Below, piece after piece: positions 15,846 to 23,773 of a stretch of DNA of 64,000 nucleotides. A program made the translations under genes and the position numbers. The notes beneath the pieces were generated by a model. The model saw only the letters and a list, made by a program, of their open reading frames with translations, did no database searches and was not told the DNA's origin. The stretch is from NCBI GenBank assembly GCA_042408925.1, contig JBHOQO010000139.1, forward strand, positions 3,655 through 67,654. The letters are read 5' to 3'. This DNA is from Chloroflexota bacterium. Lineage in GTDB: Bacteria > Chloroflexota > Limnocylindria > Limnocylindrales > CSP1-4. Every line of letters starts with the position of its first letter. Positions within the stretch are counted from its first letter, which is position 1.

Positions 15846-17250
15846 CTACGCCTCGTCGGCGGCCAGGGACCGGGCGAGGAGGAGGAGGGTCGGTCGCTCG
15901 TTCAGCGACGGGTCGGCGACGACCCGCTCGAGGAGGGCGTCGAGGATTCGACCGAGGCGCGGCCCCGGCTCCACACCGAGCTCGGCGATGAGGTCGTCGC
16001 CGTCGACGGCGAGGTCGCGTCGGTCGAGGACGACCGGGCCGGCGAGGATCGCCGCGACGCGCGCCTCGAGCTCGGCCACGCCGGTCGCTTCGGGCGGCAG
16101 GCCGCTCCCGACGTTGTCGGCCCGTCGCAAGGCGAAGAGCTCGTCGAGGGCGTCGGGGCCGATCCGGGCGATGAAGCGTCGGACGGCGGCGTCGCTCCAG
16201 CTCCCCTCGTAGGAGAACATGTGGTGACGGACGAGGTGGGCGACCCGCTCGATCGTCTCGCGGGGCAGCCGGAGGCGCCGGAGGATCACCTCGCTCAGCT
16301 CCGCCCCCCGGAGCTCGTGGCCCGGGAAGTGCCCCTCGGCGGCCGTTCCGGGCTTGCCGACGTCGTGGAGGAGGGCAGCGAGCCGGACGATCGGCCGCTC
16401 GGCCGGTGCGGCATCGACGGTCCGGAGCGTGTGGGCCCAGAGGTCGTCGCCGGGAACCTTGGCCTGGGGGACCCCGCGCTGGGCGGCGAGCTCGGGGAGG
16501 AGGCGTTCGAGAAGGCCGGTCGCCTCGAGGAGCCCGAGGCCGATGGACGGCCGGCGGGCGGCGAGGAGCTTCGTCAGCTCGGCCGCGATCCGTTCGCCCG
16601 AAAGGTGGCGGACGAGGTCGGCCCGCTCCCGGATCGCCGCGAGCGTGGCCGGCTCGATCTCGAACTCGAGGACGGCGGCGAGGCGGATCGCCCGGACCAT
16701 CCGGAGGGCGTCCTCCCCGAAGCGGTCGAACGGGTTGCCGACGGCCCGGATCCGGCGGGCGGCGAGGTCGGCGAGGCCGCCGTGGGGGTCGACCAGGCGG
16801 ATCTCGGCGGGCGTGCCGTCGGGGCTCGGCTCGGCGCCCCAGGCGAGGGCGTTGATCGTGAAGTCGCGGCGGGCGAGGTCGTCCTCGATCCGCTCGCCAA
16901 ACTCGACCCGGTGGGGGCGGCGGAAGTCGGCGTACTCGTGCTCGGAGCGGAAGGTCGTGATCTCGTGGACGCCGTCCCGGCGGCGGACGCCGACGGTCCC
17001 GAACTGGTTCTCGTACGACGCGTCGGGGAAGACCGCCAGGACCTCCTCGGGGCGGGCGGCGGTGGCGAGGTCCCAGTCGGCGGCCGGGCGGTCGAGGAGG
17101 ACGTCGCGGAGCGAGCCGCCGACGAGGTAGGCGGCGTGGCCGGCGGCCCAGAGCCGGCGGAGGAGGTCGAGGACGGGTTCGGGGACGGCGGCGGCGATCT
17201 TCGCCCGGGCGGCCTCGGGATCGAGCGGCTCGGCGGGCGTGTTCGGCTCG
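15846..17250 (-). CDS. cca: CCA-adding enzyme / poly(A) polymerase-family tRNA nucleotidyltransferase with a C-terminal HD domain
   Basis: Pol-beta nucleotidyltransferase head GGSLRDVLLDRPAADWDLAT; RDFTINALAW; HD region HLVRHHMF...LRRADNVGSG. The start is approximate; the upstream part of the track ORF runs through a 17-bp tandem repeat and the HNH gene in another frame. Confidence 0.65.
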
Positions 17251-17254
17251 GTCG

Positions 17255-17345
17255 GCCTTCGTCCTGTGGTGGGCCCTCGCCCCGCGGTCGACCCTCGCCC
17301 CGCGGTCGACCCTCGCCGCGCGGTCGACCCTCGCCGCGCGGTCGA
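17255..17345. repeat. 17-bp tandem repeat (CGCGGTCGACCCTCGCC) x4
   Basis: Read directly: 'ccgcggtcgaccctcgccccgcggtcgaccctcgccgcgcggtcgaccctcgccgcgcggtcgac'. Confidence 0.8.
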
Positions 17346-17368
17346 CTCGTCCCGTCCCCGACCGGCGC

Positions 17369-17884
17369 TCAGCTCCGGCCGAGGAAGAGGTACGTCCGCC
17401 ACGCCTCGTTCCGCGAATCGGCGAGGTACGGCGTGAACAGCGAGTAGACGTCGCTCCTCGGCTCGAAGGGCTGCCGGATCAGGCGCATCCGAGCCTCCTC
17501 GAGGGTCTTGCCGCCCTTGCGGTGGTTGCAGCTCTTGCAGGCCGTCACGAGGTTCTCCCAGGTGTGGCCGCCGCCGCGGTGGCGGGGCACGACGTGATCG
17601 AGGGTCAAATCGTTCGTCTGGCGGCCGCAGTACTGACAGGTGTAGTGGTCGCGGGCGAAGACCTCGCGACGGGCGAGCCGGACCCGCGGTCGCGGTCGCC
17701 GGACGAGGTGCTGGAGGCGGATTACGGACGGCGCCCGGAACTCGGTCCGCGGCGTCCGGACGACCTGGTGGTCGTATTCGATGACCTCGGCCTTGGCGCC
17801 CAGGATGAGCCGGAACGCGCGCGGCAGGTTGCACACGTTCAGCGGCTCGTAGTTCTGGTTCAGCACGAGGACGACGCCGTCCAT
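17369..17884 (-). CDS. HNH endonuclease
   Basis: HNH motif YTCQYCGRQTNDLTLDHVVPRHRGGGHTWENLVTACKSCNHRKGG, preceded by the conserved LVLNQNYEPLNV N-terminus. I trimmed the start to the internal ATG (MDGVVLVL). Confidence 0.7.
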   Translation of the reverse strand: MDGVVLVLNQNYEPLNVCNLPRAFRLILGAKAEVIEYDHQVVRTPRTEFRAPSVIRLQHLVRRPRPRVRLARREVFARDHYTCQYCGRQTNDLTLDHVVPRHRGGGHTWENLVTACKSCNHRKGGKTLEEARMRLIRQPFEPRSDVYSLFTPYLADSRNEAWRTYLFLGRS

Positions 17885-17989
17885 GATGGAGGCGATGGTA
17901 ATCGAGCCGAGCCCGGCGTGTTGTCCGCGCGGGTGCCGGTCGTCCTCGGCCGCGTCCGCGGCCCCGCCCCGTGCCGGCCCGCCGCGCCC

Positions 17990-18295
17990 AGCCATTCGTC
18001 CGGTGCATGGAATGTCGTGCGGCACCGGCCGCGACGCGCCACCTATTCACCCGGCGCATCTCCGCCCCGGTCGGCGGCCCTCCGCCGCTCCGCGCATTCC
18101 CGAGGCGAATACAAGCCGGCCCGCAACCGGCCGCGACCGACCGTGCATTCTCCCGGCGAATGGGCGACCAGGCCGGCCGCCCATCGGCGCCCGTACATTC
18201 ACCGCCCGCATGATCGACCGGGGTCGGCCGCGTCGCATCACGCCAGCATGCGCCCGATGAATGTCCGACGATCTCCGGACGTCAGTCCCGGGCTC
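17990..18295. repeat. Six-unit tandem array with about 51-bp period; each unit carries an imperfect CATTC-N7-8-GAATG inverted repeat
   Basis: Units begin near 17993 (cattcgtccggtgcatggaatg), 18044 (tattcacccggcgcatc), 18096 (cattcccgaggcgaata), 18146 (cattctcccggcgaatg), 18196 (cattcaccgcccgcatga) and 18247 (catgcgcccgatgaatg). The array lies in the roughly 500-bp gap between the HNH gene's 5' end and the liu operon's 3' end. Confidence 0.7.
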
Positions 18296-18391
18296 GGCCA
18301 CCCAGGGCCACTCCGCCGCCCCCGGCCCCCTTCGTGGCGCCGCTCCCGGCGACCGCCCGGCCGCCCGCAGCACCCGACCGCCTGCCGCCCC

Positions 18392-19381
18392 TCAGTCGGG
18401 CCGAACCGGCCACCCGCCGGCCTGGCCCACCTTCGAGGCCAGCGGCCGCCCGAGCGCCCCGCTGATGAAGCGACCCGCCTCGAGGACCCCCGCCAGGTCC
18501 ACCCCGTGCTCCCAGCCCTCGCCGTCGAGCAGGTAGACGAGGTCCTCCGTCGCCAGGTTGCCGGCCGCGCCCGGGGCGTACGGGCAGCCGCCCGTCCCGC
18601 CGCTCGAGGCGTCGAAGCAGCGGACGCCCGCGGCCAGGCCCGCCACCACGTTCGCGAGCGCCGTCCCTCGAGTGTCGTGGAGGTGGAGGGCGAGCCGGTC
18701 GAGTCCGATCCCGGCGTCCACCGCCCGCCCGACGAGGTCGCCGACCTGGCTGGGCACCCCGACCCCGATCGTGTCGCCGAAGCAGACCTCGTCGACCCCG
18801 AGCTCGAGGAGGCGGGCCCCGACGGCGACCGCCCGGGCCGGGTCGACCCGCCCCTCGTACGGGCAGCCGAAGGCGGTCGAGACGTAGCCGCGGACCCACC
18901 AGCCCCGCTCGCGGGCCGCGGCGACGACCGGGCCGAACGTCGCCAGGCTCTCGGCGACGGTCATCCCGATGTTGTGGCGGGTGAAGGCGTCCGTGGCGGC
19001 CGTGAAGACCGCGATCGCCTCGATCCCGGCCCGTTCCGCCCGCTCCAGGCCCCGGAGGTTCGGGACGAGGGCGACGTAGCGGATCCCCGGGCGCCGCGGG
19101 AGCCCGGCCGCGACCGCCTCGGCGTCGGCGAGCTGGGGGACGGCGCGGGGCGAGACGAAGCTCGTCGCCTCGATCTCCCGGAGTCCGGCGGCGACGAGCA
19201 GCTCAAGGTACCGGAGCTTCGCCGCGGTCGGGATCGGGGTCGCCTCGTTCTGGAGGCCGTCGCGCGGCCCGACCTCGTAGATCCGGACCCGACGGTCCGC
19301 GGCCGCCGGCGGGTCGGCGCCCGGTTGCCGGGCGGTCGGGTCGGGCCCGGTCCCTTCGGCTCCGGCCCCGATCCCGCCCAC
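18392..19381 (-). CDS. Hydroxymethylglutaryl-CoA lyase
   Basis: VRIYEVGPRDGLQNE, TSFVSPRAVPQ, the HLHDTRGTALANV motif and C-terminal GGCPYAPGAAGN are characteristic of HMGL. The start may be internal. Confidence 0.75.
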   Translation of the reverse strand: MGGIGAGAEGTGPDPTARQPGADPPAAADRRVRIYEVGPRDGLQNEATPIPTAAKLRYLELLVAAGLREIEATSFVSPRAVPQLADAEAVAAGLPRRPGIRYVALVPNLRGLERAERAGIEAIAVFTAATDAFTRHNIGMTVAESLATFGPVVAAARERGWWVRGYVSTAFGCPYEGRVDPARAVAVGARLLELGVDEVCFGDTIGVGVPSQVGDLVGRAVDAGIGLDRLALHLHDTRGTALANVVAGLAAGVRCFDASSGGTGGCPYAPGAAGNLATEDLVYLLDGEGWEHGVDLAGVLEAGRFISGALGRPLASKVGQAGGWPVRPD

Positions 19382-19400
19382 GACCTCGCTCCCGAGCGGC

Positions 19401-19676
19401 CTACAGCCGCGGCGGATCCGCGGTCCGGTCGAGCTCGGCGATGGCGACCTCGATCCGGGCGATCTCCTGGACGGCGGCGACCCACTCCTCGCTCCCGAGC
19501 GGCGCCGCGTTCCGACGCCGCCGTGCCGCGGCGTGGGCGGCGAGGAGCGCCTCGCGGGTGGGCCGCTCCCCGCCCGATGCGGCGGCGGTCGTCGGGGGAT
19601 CGGTGACTGGTGGTCGGTTCGGCGTCGGCATCGCGAATGTCGGTCCCGTCTGGCGATCGAGCTTCGGCTCGATCAT
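19401..19676 (-). CDS. Small hypothetical protein (about 91 aa) between the methylcrotonyl-CoA carboxylase alpha gene and the HMG-CoA lyase gene
   Basis: An ATG-initiated ORF MIEPKLDRQTGPTFAMPTPNRPP...EEWVAAVQEIARIEVAIAELDRTADPPRL fills the gap. No family was recognised, so this could be a GC artifact. Confidence 0.25.
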   Translation of the reverse strand: MIEPKLDRQTGPTFAMPTPNRPPVTDPPTTAAASGGERPTREALLAAHAAARRRRNAAPLGSEEWVAAVQEIARIEVAIAELDRTADPPRL

Positions 19677-19708
19677 CGTAGCGCCTCTAGCGCCTCGGCT
19701 GAGGAGCC

Positions 19709-21850
19709 TCAGGCCTCGATGAGGGCGATGAGGTCGCCCCGGGCGAGCTGGTCGCCGCGCCCCACGGCCAAGTCGACGACCCGGCCCGGCCCCGGAGCGG
19801 CGACGACGTGCTCCATCTTCATCGCCTCGAGGGTGACGATCGGGTCGCCGGCTTCGACGTGGTCCCCGACCGCGACGTGGACGACGCCGACGAGGCCCGG
19901 CATCGGCGCCTCCACGACCTGGGCGCCGCCGGCGTGGCCGCGCTCGGCCGTCCGGACCGCGGCCTCGACGTCGGGCGGTGGGGCGAGCCGGAAGGCGACC
20001 GAGCGGCCCGCAACGTCGACGTGGGCAACGAGTCCGTCGACGGCCGCGGCCGGGAGGGGCTCGCCCGCCACCGAGCGGTCGTCGGCCCCTCCACCCTCCG
20101 GGTCGAGGAGGACCGTTCGAGCGGTCCCGTCCTCGGCGACGAGTCGCAGGGACGCTCCGAACGGTCGCCAGCCGCCGCCCCACGGGTCGCCGCGCCGGGC
20201 TGCCTCGGCCTCGAGCGCGCCCCGCAGGGCCTCGCCGGCCGCCCGCCAGACCGCCTCGGCCTCGCCGGCCCTTCGAACCCGTTCGGCCCAGTCGTCCGGC
20301 GGCCAGATGGCGGCGAGCGTGTCGGTTCGGGCCAGCCCCTCGCGGACGACCGGCTGCCGAACGAGCCACCGGAGGAAGCGGAGGTTCGTGACGAGCCCGA
20401 GGAGGCGGGTCGCCTCGAGGGCCGCCGCCAGCCGATCGAGGGCGGCCTCGCGGTCGGGGCCGTGGGCGGCGATCTTGGCGAGGAGCGGGTCGAACCGTCC
20501 GCCCACGACCGAGCCGACCTCGACGCCCGCGTCGACCCGTATCCCCGGCCCCTCCGGCCAGGCGAGGTCGAGAATGCGACCCGTCGCCGGCAGGAAGCCC
20601 GCCTCGGCGTCCTCGGCGTAGAGGCGGACCTCGACGGCATGGCCGCCGGCCTCGAAGGCCCGAAGGACGTCGCCCTGGTCGAGCCCGAGCGGCTCGCCGG
20701 CGGCGACCCGGAGCTGGTCGGCGACGAGGTCGCGACCCGTGACCGCCTCGGTGACGGGGTGCTCGACCTGGAGGCGGGTGTTCATCTCGAGGAAGACGAA
20801 CCGGTTCGTCTCGTCGAGGAGGAACTCGCACGTTCCGGCTCCGACGTAGCCGACGGCCGACGCAAGCCGGAGGGCCGCCTCGCCGAGGGCCGCCCGCAGC
20901 TCCGGGGTCAGCCGCGGCGCCGGCGCCTCTTCGAGGATCTTCTGGTGGCGCCGCTGGAGCGAGCAGTCGCGCTCGCCCAGGTGGACGCCCCGACCGTGGG
21001 CATCGAAGAGGACCTGAACCTCGACGTGGCGAGGGTGCTCGAGGTAGCGCTCGAGGAGGAGGCGGTCGTCTCCGAAGGCCGCCCGGGCCTCCCGACGGGC
21101 CGCGGCGAGGACCGCTCCGAGACCCTCGAGGCTCCGGACGACCCGCATCCCCTTGCCGCCGCCGCCGGCCGCCGGCTTGACGATGAGCGGAGGGCCGAGT
21201 CGCTCGGCCGCGGCGAGGAGCGAGGCGTCGGATTGGTCGGCGGGGGCGTCGCCCTCGGCGACCGGGATTCCGAGGCGGCGGGCGAGCTCGCGGGCGCGGG
21301 CCTTGTCGCCCATCGCCTCGATCGCCTCGGGCGGCGGGCCGACCCAGCGGATCCCGGCGGCGAGGACGCGGCGGGCGAAGTCGGGATTCTCGGCGAGGAA
21401 GCCGTAGCCGGGGTGGAGGGCGTCGGCGCCGGCGGCGAGGGCGGCAACAACGACCTCCTCGGGGTCGAGGAGGTCGAGAGGTTCGGGCGATGCGGACGCG
21501 GGCAGGGCCGGCCGGCCGTCGTCGACGAGGGGAAGCACGGCTTCGATCCCGAGGCGGTGGCAGGTTCGGGCGATCCGGGCCGCGATCTCGCCCCGGTTCG
21601 CGACGAAGCAGCGGCGGATCGGGCGGGCGGGTGCCGTGGCCGTCGTCTGTGCGGCCCCACGAGCGGTCGATCCCGCAGCGCCGAGCGCGGCGAGGGCGGC
21701 GACGGGCACCCGCCACCGACCGCCGACCCGCCGGGCCGGGAGGCGGCCGGCAGCGATCCAGCGCTGGACGGTTCGGGTGCTCGTCCCCAGGCGGCGCGCC
21801 GCTTCGGACGGCGAGCACTCGAACCGATCGTCAGCCGGTCGCGCGGTCAT
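19709..21850 (-). CDS. Methylcrotonyl-CoA (acyl-CoA) carboxylase alpha subunit: biotin carboxylase plus BCCP, with an N-terminal excisionase/MerR-type HTH extension
   Basis: Biotin-carboxylase motifs: IRRCFVANRGEIAARI, the ATP-grasp fold, and C-terminal BCCP EAMKMEH. The first roughly 45 aa (RRLGTSTRTVQRWIAAGRLPARRVGGRWRVP) match HTH_17/excisionase-type DNA-binding helices. They sit in the same frame as the carboxylase with no intervening stop. Confidence 0.75.
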   Translation of the reverse strand: MTARPADDRFECSPSEAARRLGTSTRTVQRWIAAGRLPARRVGGRWRVPVAALAALGAAGSTARGAAQTTATAPARPIRRCFVANRGEIAARIARTCHRLGIEAVLPLVDDGRPALPASASPEPLDLLDPEEVVVAALAAGADALHPGYGFLAENPDFARRVLAAGIRWVGPPPEAIEAMGDKARARELARRLGIPVAEGDAPADQSDASLLAAAERLGPPLIVKPAAGGGGKGMRVVRSLEGLGAVLAAARREARAAFGDDRLLLERYLEHPRHVEVQVLFDAHGRGVHLGERDCSLQRRHQKILEEAPAPRLTPELRAALGEAALRLASAVGYVGAGTCEFLLDETNRFVFLEMNTRLQVEHPVTEAVTGRDLVADQLRVAAGEPLGLDQGDVLRAFEAGGHAVEVRLYAEDAEAGFLPATGRILDLAWPEGPGIRVDAGVEVGSVVGGRFDPLLAKIAAHGPDREAALDRLAAALEATRLLGLVTNLRFLRWLVRQPVVREGLARTDTLAAIWPPDDWAERVRRAGEAEAVWRAAGEALRGALEAEAARRGDPWGGGWRPFGASLRLVAEDGTARTVLLDPEGGGADDRSVAGEPLPAAAVDGLVAHVDVAGRSVAFRLAPPPDVEAAVRTAERGHAGGAQVVEAPMPGLVGVVHVAVGDHVEAGDPIVTLEAMKMEHVVAAPGPGRVVDLAVGRGDQLARGDLIALIEA

Positions 21851-23165: not shown

Positions 23166-23399
23166 ATGCAGGTGAACATCCACGAAGCGAAGACGCACCT
23201 CTCACGGCTCGTCGATCGAGCGGCCGCCGGCGAGGACATCGTGATCGCCAGAGCCGGCCGGCCGGTCGCCCGCCTCGTCCGCTTCGAGCCGCCGCGTGAG
23301 GCCCGACGCCTCGGTATCTGGCGGGGTCAGGTCCGGATCGGCCCCGACTTCGACGCCGTCGATGACGCCCTCGCCGACCTCTTCGAAGGCGAGCGGTGA
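23166..23399 (+). CDS. Type II antitoxin, Phd/YefM family
   Basis: MQVNIHEAKTHLSRLVDRAAAGEDIVIARAGRPVARLV is a canonical Phd/YefM N-terminus. Its stop overlaps the toxin's GTG start (GTGA). Confidence 0.8.
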   Translation: MQVNIHEAKTHLSRLVDRAAAGEDIVIARAGRPVARLVRFEPPREARRLGIWRGQVRIGPDFDAVDDALADLFEGER

Positions 23400-23773
23400 G
23401 GCTCCTCCTCGACACGCACGCGTTTCTCTGGGCACTCGCCCTGCCGGATGAACTGCGACTCGAGGCGAGACGGGCGATCGAGGATCCCCGGAACGACGTC
23501 TTCGTCAGTGCCGCATCTGCCTGGGAGATCGCGATCAAGCGCGCCCTCGGACGCCTGGAGGCGCCCGACGATCTCGGTGATGCCATCGGAGCGGTCGGCT
23601 TCGTCGAGCTGCCGATCACGATCGGGCACGCGCTCGCCGTCGAGCGGCTGGCCCGCCACCATCGCGATCCCTTCGACCGGATGCTCATCGCCCAGGCCCT
23701 CGTCGAGGGCTTGATCATCGTCACCCGCGACGCTCGCTTCGAGCCGTACGGCGTGCCCGTCCTCCGTGCTTGA
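23396..23773 (+). CDS. vapC: Type II toxin VapC (PIN domain ribonuclease)
   Basis: MRLLLDTHAFLWAL..., with acidic residues in PIN positions (D6, E, D near the C-terminus: IVTRDARF). Confidence 0.8.
   Translation: MRLLLDTHAFLWALALPDELRLEARRAIEDPRNDVFVSAASAWEIAIKRALGRLEAPDDLGDAIGAVGFVELPITIGHALAVERLARHHRDPFDRMLIAQALVEGLIIVTRDARFEPYGVPVLRA

Follow-up and report, generated by a model that had tools for sequence, protein, structure and literature searches.

The stretch analysed here, a 64-kb window from a Chloroflexota bacterium (contig JBHOQO010000139.1), contains a 506-bp intergenic spacer (17885–18391) that reaches from the stop codon of an HMG-CoA lyase gene to the start codon of an HNH endonuclease gene and that holds six evenly spaced 17-bp inverted repeats (dyads) on the plus strand, within 17990–18295. 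The HMG-CoA lyase gene (liuE, 18392–19381, minus strand; Pfam HMGL-like, E = 2e-41) is the final gene of a leucine-catabolic run, and its stop codon lies 128 bp from dyad 6. The HNH gene (17369–17884, minus strand, 171 amino acids; Pfam HNH/HNH_5) begins with an ATG at 17884, 108 bp from dyad 1, and is followed on the minus strand by a gene of the CCA-adding/poly(A) polymerase family (cca, from about 17240 down to 15846). An initial annotation of this DNA had placed a six-unit array of CATTC-N7-8-GAATG palindromes with a period of about 51 bp upstream of HNH-cca and downstream of the liu operon, which is correct when read on the minus strand.

The dyads share the consensus YATTCRC-N3-GYGAATR and their start-to-start distances are 51, 51, 51, 50 and 51 bp, confirming the six-unit array; its degraded arms (TATTC, CATGC/GCATG) are as had been described. 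With regard to the inner gap, N7 is found in all six dyads and N8 in none. Using a weight matrix built from 48 sites, among them the window's own six, the dyads score 20–24 bits, and the runner-up position in the 64 kb scores 15.5. Near-invariant positions of the matrix are A2, T3 and C5 in one arm and G13, A15 and T16 in the other. In detail, dyad 1 (17993–18009, CATTCGTCCGGTGCATG, 21.6 bits) has an overlapping alternative right arm, provided by a second GAATG at 18010–18014, and is specific to the window, with no counterpart in the orthologous contigs L010 and L036. Dyad 2 (18044–18060, TATTCACCCGGCGCATC, 20.3 bits; orthologues at L010:351 and L036:3688) is the weakest by arm mismatches. It is followed by dyad 3 (18095–18111, CATTCCCGAGGCGAATA, 23.8 bits; L010:235, L036:3573), by dyad 4, which has perfect arms (18146–18162, CATTCTCCCGGCGAATG, 24.1 bits; L010:184, L036:3522), by dyad 5 (18196–18212, CATTCACCGCCCGCATG, 21.0 bits; L010:133, L036:3460) and by dyad 6 (18247–18263, CATGCGCCCGATGAATG, 22.0 bits; L010:82, L036:3409).

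When at most one mismatch is allowed, CATTC-N7-GAATG has five matches in the window, all inside one 271-bp stretch. First-order Markov simulations of the window put the mean chance expectation at 0.33 such matches in 64 kb, and none of 300 runs placed two or more of them inside 300 bp. Tandem Repeats Finder did not report the array, because conservation is limited to the dyads and the 33–35-bp spacers between them are not conserved. These spacers show a mild C-G-A-G preference beside the dyad and a very GC-rich centre, and no 10-bp periodicity of A/T is evident in them. The array is bracketed by a perfect 11-bp inverted repeat (17906–17916, GCCGAGCCCGG; 18288–18298, CCGGGCTCGGC), which is not kept in L010 or L036 and of which about 0.3 pairs are expected by chance in this GC-rich stretch.

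The G+C content of the window is 73%, and its real genes show a G+C content at third codon positions (GC3) above 0.9. This coding signal is absent from every frame between 17885 and 18391, with GC3 values of 0.63–0.83 across 17960–18290 in all three frame phases and on both strands. The spacer is therefore non-coding and the open reading frames that cross the array are artefacts, as had been annotated; a protein-coding tandem repeat (51 bp corresponding to 17 codons) is ruled out by the same profile.

Conservation of the arms and their spacing

All comparisons between loci are based on metagenome contigs. Two JGI contigs (L010, L011) encode an HNH protein identical to that of the window and a third (L036) encodes one that is identical in 168 of 172 residues, and each of them holds an array in the equivalent spacer. 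Among the window, L010 and L036, 19–27% of the third codon positions of the HNH gene have changed, the protein being 98–100% identical. In the three-way alignment of these loci the dyads align one to one, the 51-bp register is kept, and the spacers can be aligned. Invariant columns amount to 39 of 49 in the arms, 7 of 35 in the dyad centres and 47 of 136 in the spacers (Fisher P = 5e-8). L010 and L036 have an additional 65 bp between two dyads (116 bp there, 51 bp in the window), and the window has one dyad more than they do. By contrast, relatives whose HNH protein is 85–87% identical keep the order liuE-HNH-cca with a spacer of only about 40–210 bp and no dyads, from which it follows that the array is a gain of one subclade and that the HNH-cca genes do not require it. 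Distant Chloroflexota relatives (L001–L009) are likewise without arrays.

A second orthologous pair (L019, L069) has its array downstream of fumC/aspA, with an enzyme that is 86% identical. Three dyads at 50 + 115 bp are kept in this pair, the spacers having diverged. Where the array exists its arms and spacing are, as judged from these alignments, under selection. In the middle of the 115-bp gap a conserved orphan half-site, ATTCACGC, is present (L019:7155–7175; L069:3483–3499), dividing it into 58 + 57 bp.

The 48 dyads show no base-pair covariation between their arms. In a 7-bp stem model 78.4% of the cells pair, compared with 77.9% after shuffling of the partners, and the covariation score of the arms is 0.151 in both the observed and the shuffled set. 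At least one arm pair is mismatched in 34 of the 48 dyads, and where an arm departs from the consensus, for example as CATGC or GCATG, the opposite arm never compensates. The R at position 6 and the Y at position 12 vary independently of each other, and the spacers fold no better than shuffled sequences (mean z = -0.42). The lack of base-pair covariation argues for duplex sites of a dimeric protein and not for hairpins, the complementarity of the arms arising because two half-sites each match a consensus; a hairpin or REP-like structure was rejected in view of this lack, of the frequent arm mismatches and of spacers that fold like shuffles. As far as sequence can tell, the pattern is the one expected of a DNA-binding dimer with two-fold symmetry that recognises ATTC/GAAT arms at a distance of 12 bp and makes no use of the bases between them, and the six evenly spaced palindromes are real, conserved and predicted docking sites for a DNA-binding protein.

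A dispersed family of phased arrays

The array of the window is a member of a family of phased arrays scattered in the intergenic DNA of high-GC, Limnocylindria-like Chloroflexota, in any gene orientation. A metagenome scan for two adjacent dyads 50–53 bp apart returned 60 loci, and about ten independent high-GC loci (G+C 0.66–0.75) carry arrays of the same type, with 3–9 dyads each. They are found between convergent genes (L042, Ppx/CHAD; L047, ABC permease/metK; L052, M24 peptidase/HTH_17), between tandem genes (the window locus; L054, after pspA; L019 and L069, after fumC-aspA) and between divergent genes (L016, pyrG/XRE). Many arrays begin 20–40 bp past a stop codon, and those of L019 and L069 directly follow the stop codon of fumC. 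The L019 contig has two arrays 3.8 kb apart, several contigs of one sample bear arrays, and the window has one array in 64 kb. Outside arrays, almost no site-level scores were found in about 205 kb of high-GC DNA scanned. No viral contig of high GC with arrays was found, and a viral origin of the arrays was rejected on these grounds. Nothing relevant on the CATTC/GAATG motif or on repeats of Limnocylindria was found in a search of the literature.

Neighbouring dyads are 50–52 bp apart in 29 of 38 cases, an excess that is partly due to ascertainment because the scan pattern required a 50–53-bp pair. The rule that governs the other distances is unaffected by this: they measure 61, 62, 71–73, 82–83, 115–116, 126 and 176 bp, and 15 of 16 deviate by no more than 0.17 turn from a whole number of turns, taken as 10.4 bp each, the sole off-integer distance belonging to a doubtful site inside a gene. 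The five-turn phasing that had been pointed out for the window is conserved across orthologues and unrelated loci, as cooperative binding of dimers on the same face would predict.

Recent duplications of units are visible in L016 and in L197. In the nine-dyad array of L016, two 51-bp units are identical including the spacer, and three tandem 34-bp units (GCCGACGCGCCCCCTCGTGTGCCGCCGGTC; L016:4818–4905) stand directly before this array. A separate repeat family, which matched the scan pattern only incidentally, occurs on soil metagenome contigs of intermediate GC content (0.54–0.61). It consists of a 50-bp tandem unit with a GATTCCC-N3/4-GGGAATG hairpin and a conserved purine-rich spacer, in up to 12 copies per array and with many arrays per sample (L037:1237–1790, L057:1569–1840, and also L027, L039, L050, L051, L055, L060–L062 and L070).

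A candidate ligand with a nuclease fold

A candidate for the protein that binds the dyads was found beside the arrays themselves. It belongs to a family of proteins of about 250 amino acids with an N-terminal XRE helix-turn-helix (HTH) domain and a C-terminal PD-(D/E)XK nuclease fold, the latter having no Pfam or NCBIfam model. In an AlphaFold2 model (mean pLDDT 87) the HTH is structurally closest to HigA2, C.AhdI and HipB, and the C-terminal domain matches the restriction-like endonuclease domain of R2 proteins, XisH and AF1548. E102, D115, E130 and K132 are invariant in 31 sequences (D...ExK), the PD-(D/E)XK motif being intact. The family comprises about 876 clusters at 50% identity (E <= 1e-30), and a homologue is absent from the 72,556 plasmids searched.

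The gene for this XRE-nuclease stands beside the largest array (nine dyads, L016), and in L019 a homologue, 46–49% identical, ends exactly at the start of the first array of the contig. Both loci were found by the motif scan alone, and for two of about ten loci to abut such a gene by chance the Poisson probability is 2e-5 assuming a single-copy gene and 5e-4 assuming five copies. Further loci, fetched through protein homology, are those of P0232 (four contigs) and P0233 (two contigs), which have 4–9 dyads each and share the arm variants of the window. Their dyads start in the variable 3' tail of the gene, about 100–125 bp before the stop codon, and continue downstream. Altogether, the XRE-nuclease gene abuts an array in four lineages. 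Arrays are absent at three homologues from the project whose HNH loci are also without arrays.

Several features of the gene and its surroundings were noted in addition. The dyads adjacent to P0232 (L195:3829–3990; L197:1331–1495) sit in 31-bp palindromes of the form GGTCAYG-CATTC-N7-GCATS-SGTGACC, and L197 has one unit more than L195, suggesting a recent duplication of a unit. In most lineages the XRE-nuclease gene lies within a 2-oxoacid dehydrogenase operon, separating the genes for E1-beta and E2 (lpd-E1a-E1b-[XRE]-E2-epimerase-lipA), in either orientation (L195:1–6774, L199:1–4508, L202:1–6732, L203:1–4074), which looks like an old insertion. In one lineage without arrays (L203:3925–3995) three 22-bp units repeated in tandem (GCTCGTACGCGGGCGGCCGAAT), each with a CGAATG half-site, come after the gene and may represent a different or ancestral arrangement of sites.

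Proteins with an HTH_17 domain were also considered as ligands, namely the methylcrotonyl-CoA carboxylase alpha fusion two genes away from the array and the neighbour of the L052 array. They were rejected, as their relationship to each other is no more than distant and the fusion occurs widely whether or not arrays are present.

On balance, and with modest confidence, we favour a nucleoprotein array of six operator-like duplex sites, with the XRE-HTH/PD-(D/E)XK protein, presumably encoded elsewhere in the genome, as the likely ligand. Each 17-bp dyad would be occupied by one dimer of a sequence-specific HTH protein, which would read the outer arms ATTC and GAAT, whose centres are 12 bp apart, and accept any sequence in the central 7 bp. 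As the repeat of 50–51 bp corresponds to five helical turns, all dimers would be placed on one face of the helix, where they could contact each other or wrap the DNA. The resulting nucleoprotein filament of about 270 bp would fill the spacer between liuE and HNH. With regard to its role, it might serve as an architectural block or insulator between transcription units, here the liu run and HNH-cca; alternatively, the nuclease domain might nick or cut the unconserved centre of the dyad.

A number of points speak against the XRE-nuclease as ligand or against strict phasing. The arrays of P0232 and P0233 probably go back to one inherited event, and the independent support for the association of gene and array is thereby reduced to three or four placements. 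The 64-kb window has no copy of the XRE-nuclease gene, so that its presence in the organism of the window is assumed. It would be paradoxical for a cell to direct an active nuclease at conserved sites of its own, and some other dimeric regulator could be the ligand, the XRE gene being merely one of its targets. The two-dyad scan pattern inflates the share of 51-bp distances and would miss single sites. Finally, at 10.5 bp per turn a period of 51 bp drifts by about 0.14 turn per unit, and strict alignment on one face consequently needs about 10.2 bp per turn.

Genomic setting, alternative readings and known systems

The remaining window is ordinary chromosome, with Tad pilus genes, a two-component system, Sua5, PdxS and TldD/PmbA. 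The HNH protein is 100% identical to a metagenome protein (P0001), and its homologues place the lineage in the Chloroflexota, Candidatus Limnocylindrales-like. Farther upstream, methylcrotonyl-CoA carboxylase subunits and an enoyl-CoA hydratase are encoded, which fits the label of a liu operon. The alpha subunit gene (19709–21850, minus strand) carries an N-terminal excisionase/MerR-like HTH_17 domain (residues 13–55) fused to the biotin carboxylase, and this fusion recurs among protein fragments of Limnocylindria/Chloroflexota, in more than 100 of them. It is unusual for a metabolic carboxylase to carry a DNA-binding domain. A Phd/YefM antitoxin and PIN (VapC) toxin pair (23166–23773, plus strand) sits amid the genes of the leucine-catabolic run, which have the opposite orientation (minus strand). 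The spacer that separates the stop codon of HNH from the start of cca contains an 18-bp tandem repeat (17249–17346), with 5.4 copies of CGGTCGACCCTCGCCCCG (88% matches) and without the coding GC3 signal.

In its genomic logic, the nearest known system is REPIN-RAYT, where single-copy enzyme genes are flanked by their repeats, which form tandem structured clusters (PMC3337134). The arrays could accordingly be selfish or domesticated repeats, seeded and amplified by a single-copy HTH-nuclease that nicks or cuts the centre of the dyad, and the array upstream of HNH would then be an insertion without any function for the host; we hold this to be unlikely. As in REP/BIME and REPIN-RAYT, the palindromes are extragenic, occur in any gene orientation and often form highly structured tandem arrays. 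Moreover, the nuclease gene has its presumed cognate repeats beside it, much as RAYT genes have REPINs, the enzyme being in both cases a (presumably) single-copy and DNA-cleaving one and the type of repeat matching the lineage (PMC3337134). The gain of the array at this locus in one lineage only, the recent unit duplications in L016 and L197 and the conserved catalytic residues also fit such an origin. REPs, however, are 20–40-nt hairpin units in near-identical copies, whose single-stranded form is the substrate of an HUH Y1 transposase, whereas the dyads show no hairpin covariation, have spacers that differ wholly between loci and share only about ten arm bases. Neither conserved stem-loops in near-identical copies nor a gene for an HUH Y1 transposase was found, and the orthologous arrays are old, persisting at 86% enzyme identity with arms and spacing under purifying selection. 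The flanked XRE-HTH/PD-(D/E)XK gene is thus analogous, not homologous, to RAYT. A tiny element of 48 bp with inverted ends and a 3-bp target duplication was likewise considered and is excluded, since both ends of the array are complete dyads and not half-sites.

In site chemistry the arrays are closest to operators of the XRE/Cro type, such as lambda OR/OL, the DdrO RDRM motif and the C-boxes of restriction-modification controllers. These are dyads of about 17 bp with conserved outer arms that are bound by a dimer with an XRE-type HTH; 17-bp dyads are standard for XRE-type dimers, for example in the lambda operators and the RDRM motif, and multiple sites give cooperative binding. The dyads described here fall within the 14–18 bp of such operators, having two conserved arms about one turn apart and a free centre (7 of 35 columns invariant), and an XRE gene is adjacent to them in four lineages, though not in the window. 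The initial annotation had proposed cooperative binding of a dimeric regulator, and this is supported insofar as the dyads are conserved as sequence and not as structure. A classical operator array of the HNH-cca promoter, with a local repressor or activator binding the six dyads cooperatively, is nevertheless rather improbable. In its favour, the array lies 108–379 bp upstream of the HNH start on the same transcriptional strand, and the dyads are kept in the three closest orthologous loci. On the other hand, the relatives with 85–87% identical HNH proteins do without dyads, arrays of the same type lie between convergent genes (L042, L047, L052) and after fumC stop codons (L019, L069), where there is no promoter, and no sigma-70-like promoter was found at 17300–18700. 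In addition, known XRE operators are located at promoters and comprise two or three sites about two turns apart, in contrast to the 3–9 sites at five-turn spacing, often far from a promoter or between convergent genes, and the nuclease-fold protein of the present arrays.

The nearest system in architecture is sopC of the F plasmid, with 12 direct repeats of 43 bp, each containing a 16-bp inverted repeat bound by SopB (PMC3177203). In both, units of constant length follow one another in tandem and are phased by whole turns (43 bp including a 16-bp inverted repeat there, 51 bp including a 17-bp dyad here), with one HTH-protein dimer per unit (predicted in the present case) and the array beside the gene of the binding protein, here a putative one. 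This likeness, together with a DNA-binding gene followed by its site array, which recalls parB-parS, and a half-site ATTCAC that resembles ParB-family heptamers, would speak for a partition centromere or a site for loading of replication proteins, of the sopC or iteron type. This reading, also offered in the initial annotation, proved weak, and we consider it very improbable. In sopC the units are near-identical from end to end, and each replicon has a single centromere accompanied by sopA and sopB. Here only about ten arm bases are conserved, and genomes or contigs hold several arrays: L019 has two, separated by 3.8 kb, and one sample yielded two contigs with arrays. No ParA, ParB or Rep genes were found near the array or among the scanned genes of the window, the context is that of a housekeeping chromosome, and the candidate ligand, an XRE-nuclease and not a ParB or ribbon-helix-helix protein, has no homologue among the plasmids searched. 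A replication origin was rejected, as there is no switch of GC skew at the array. A cluster of DnaA boxes was also rejected: the half-site resembles boxes of the TCATTCAC type, but the CAC part of it is not conserved and the arrays occur at many loci.

Least credible of all is a hairpin element of RNA or single-stranded DNA (a stabiliser of 3' ends in the manner of REP/BIME, tandem terminators or an array of small RNAs), for although every site is palindromic, many arrays begin shortly past a stop codon and one weak terminator-like pattern overlaps an array unit, pairing equals that of shuffled partners without covariation, the 5-bp A/U-rich stem would be mismatched in 34 of 48 sites, the centre evolves freely with positions 6 and 12 varying independently, and the spacers are no more structured than shuffles. 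Rfam families gave only sub-threshold chance matches in 16500–20000, and these lie elsewhere than the array; an intrinsic terminator or structured RNA was rejected on the same grounds.

Three further systems were compared. BldC, a winged HTH protein of Streptomyces, binds AATTxxxx(C) repeats of variable number and forms protein-DNA filaments (PMC5859096). It resembles the present case in that an A/T-rich tetrad within GC-rich DNA is the key determinant (the half-site here being YATTCRCC(N)), in the variable number of repeats and in the HTH_17 domains near two arrays. It differs by its head-to-tail direct repeats with a pitch of 9–10 bp, compared with inverted half-sites in sites 51 bp apart, and the two HTH_17 neighbours are not close relatives, the fusion with methylcrotonyl-CoA carboxylase being widespread irrespective of arrays. 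ATTC-N7-GAAT also fits the T-N11-A pattern of LysR-type regulators, but no gene for such a regulator flanks any array and the sites are spaced by five and not by two to three turns, which led us to reject a LysR-type box. CRISPR was rejected because of the degenerate repeats (about ten bases conserved per unit), the spacers common to orthologous loci and the absence of cas domains in the neighbouring genes.

Returning to the nucleoprotein array with an XRE-nuclease ligand, we tentatively suggest that the arrays and the XRE-HTH/PD-(D/E)XK protein might together form a previously undescribed two-part genome system of Chloroflexota, made up of a vertically inherited, sequence-guided nuclease and its own family of helically phased dyad arrays scattered in intergenic DNA, although we hold this to be less likely than not. 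The nuclease would assemble along the array and nick or cut the dyad centres, leading to turnover of the array, local recombination or boundaries of chromosome domains. The logic of such a system would be parallel to that of REPIN-RAYT, with another enzyme fold, duplex sites in place of hairpins and a higher-order phasing.

Soil and freshwater are rich in Limnocylindria and related high-GC Chloroflexota, which are almost wholly uncultured and whose chromosomes are essentially unstudied as to organisation and regulation. The present analysis provides a concrete cis element for them, a 17-bp dyad with five-turn phasing, along with signs of selection over long divergence and a specific candidate partner protein without assigned function. 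If the proposed reading is true, it would amount to a new nucleoid-structuring or insulating system, or to a new partnership of nuclease and repeat comparable to REPIN-RAYT, and in either case a class of long, so far unannotated intergenic spacers of these genomes would be accounted for.

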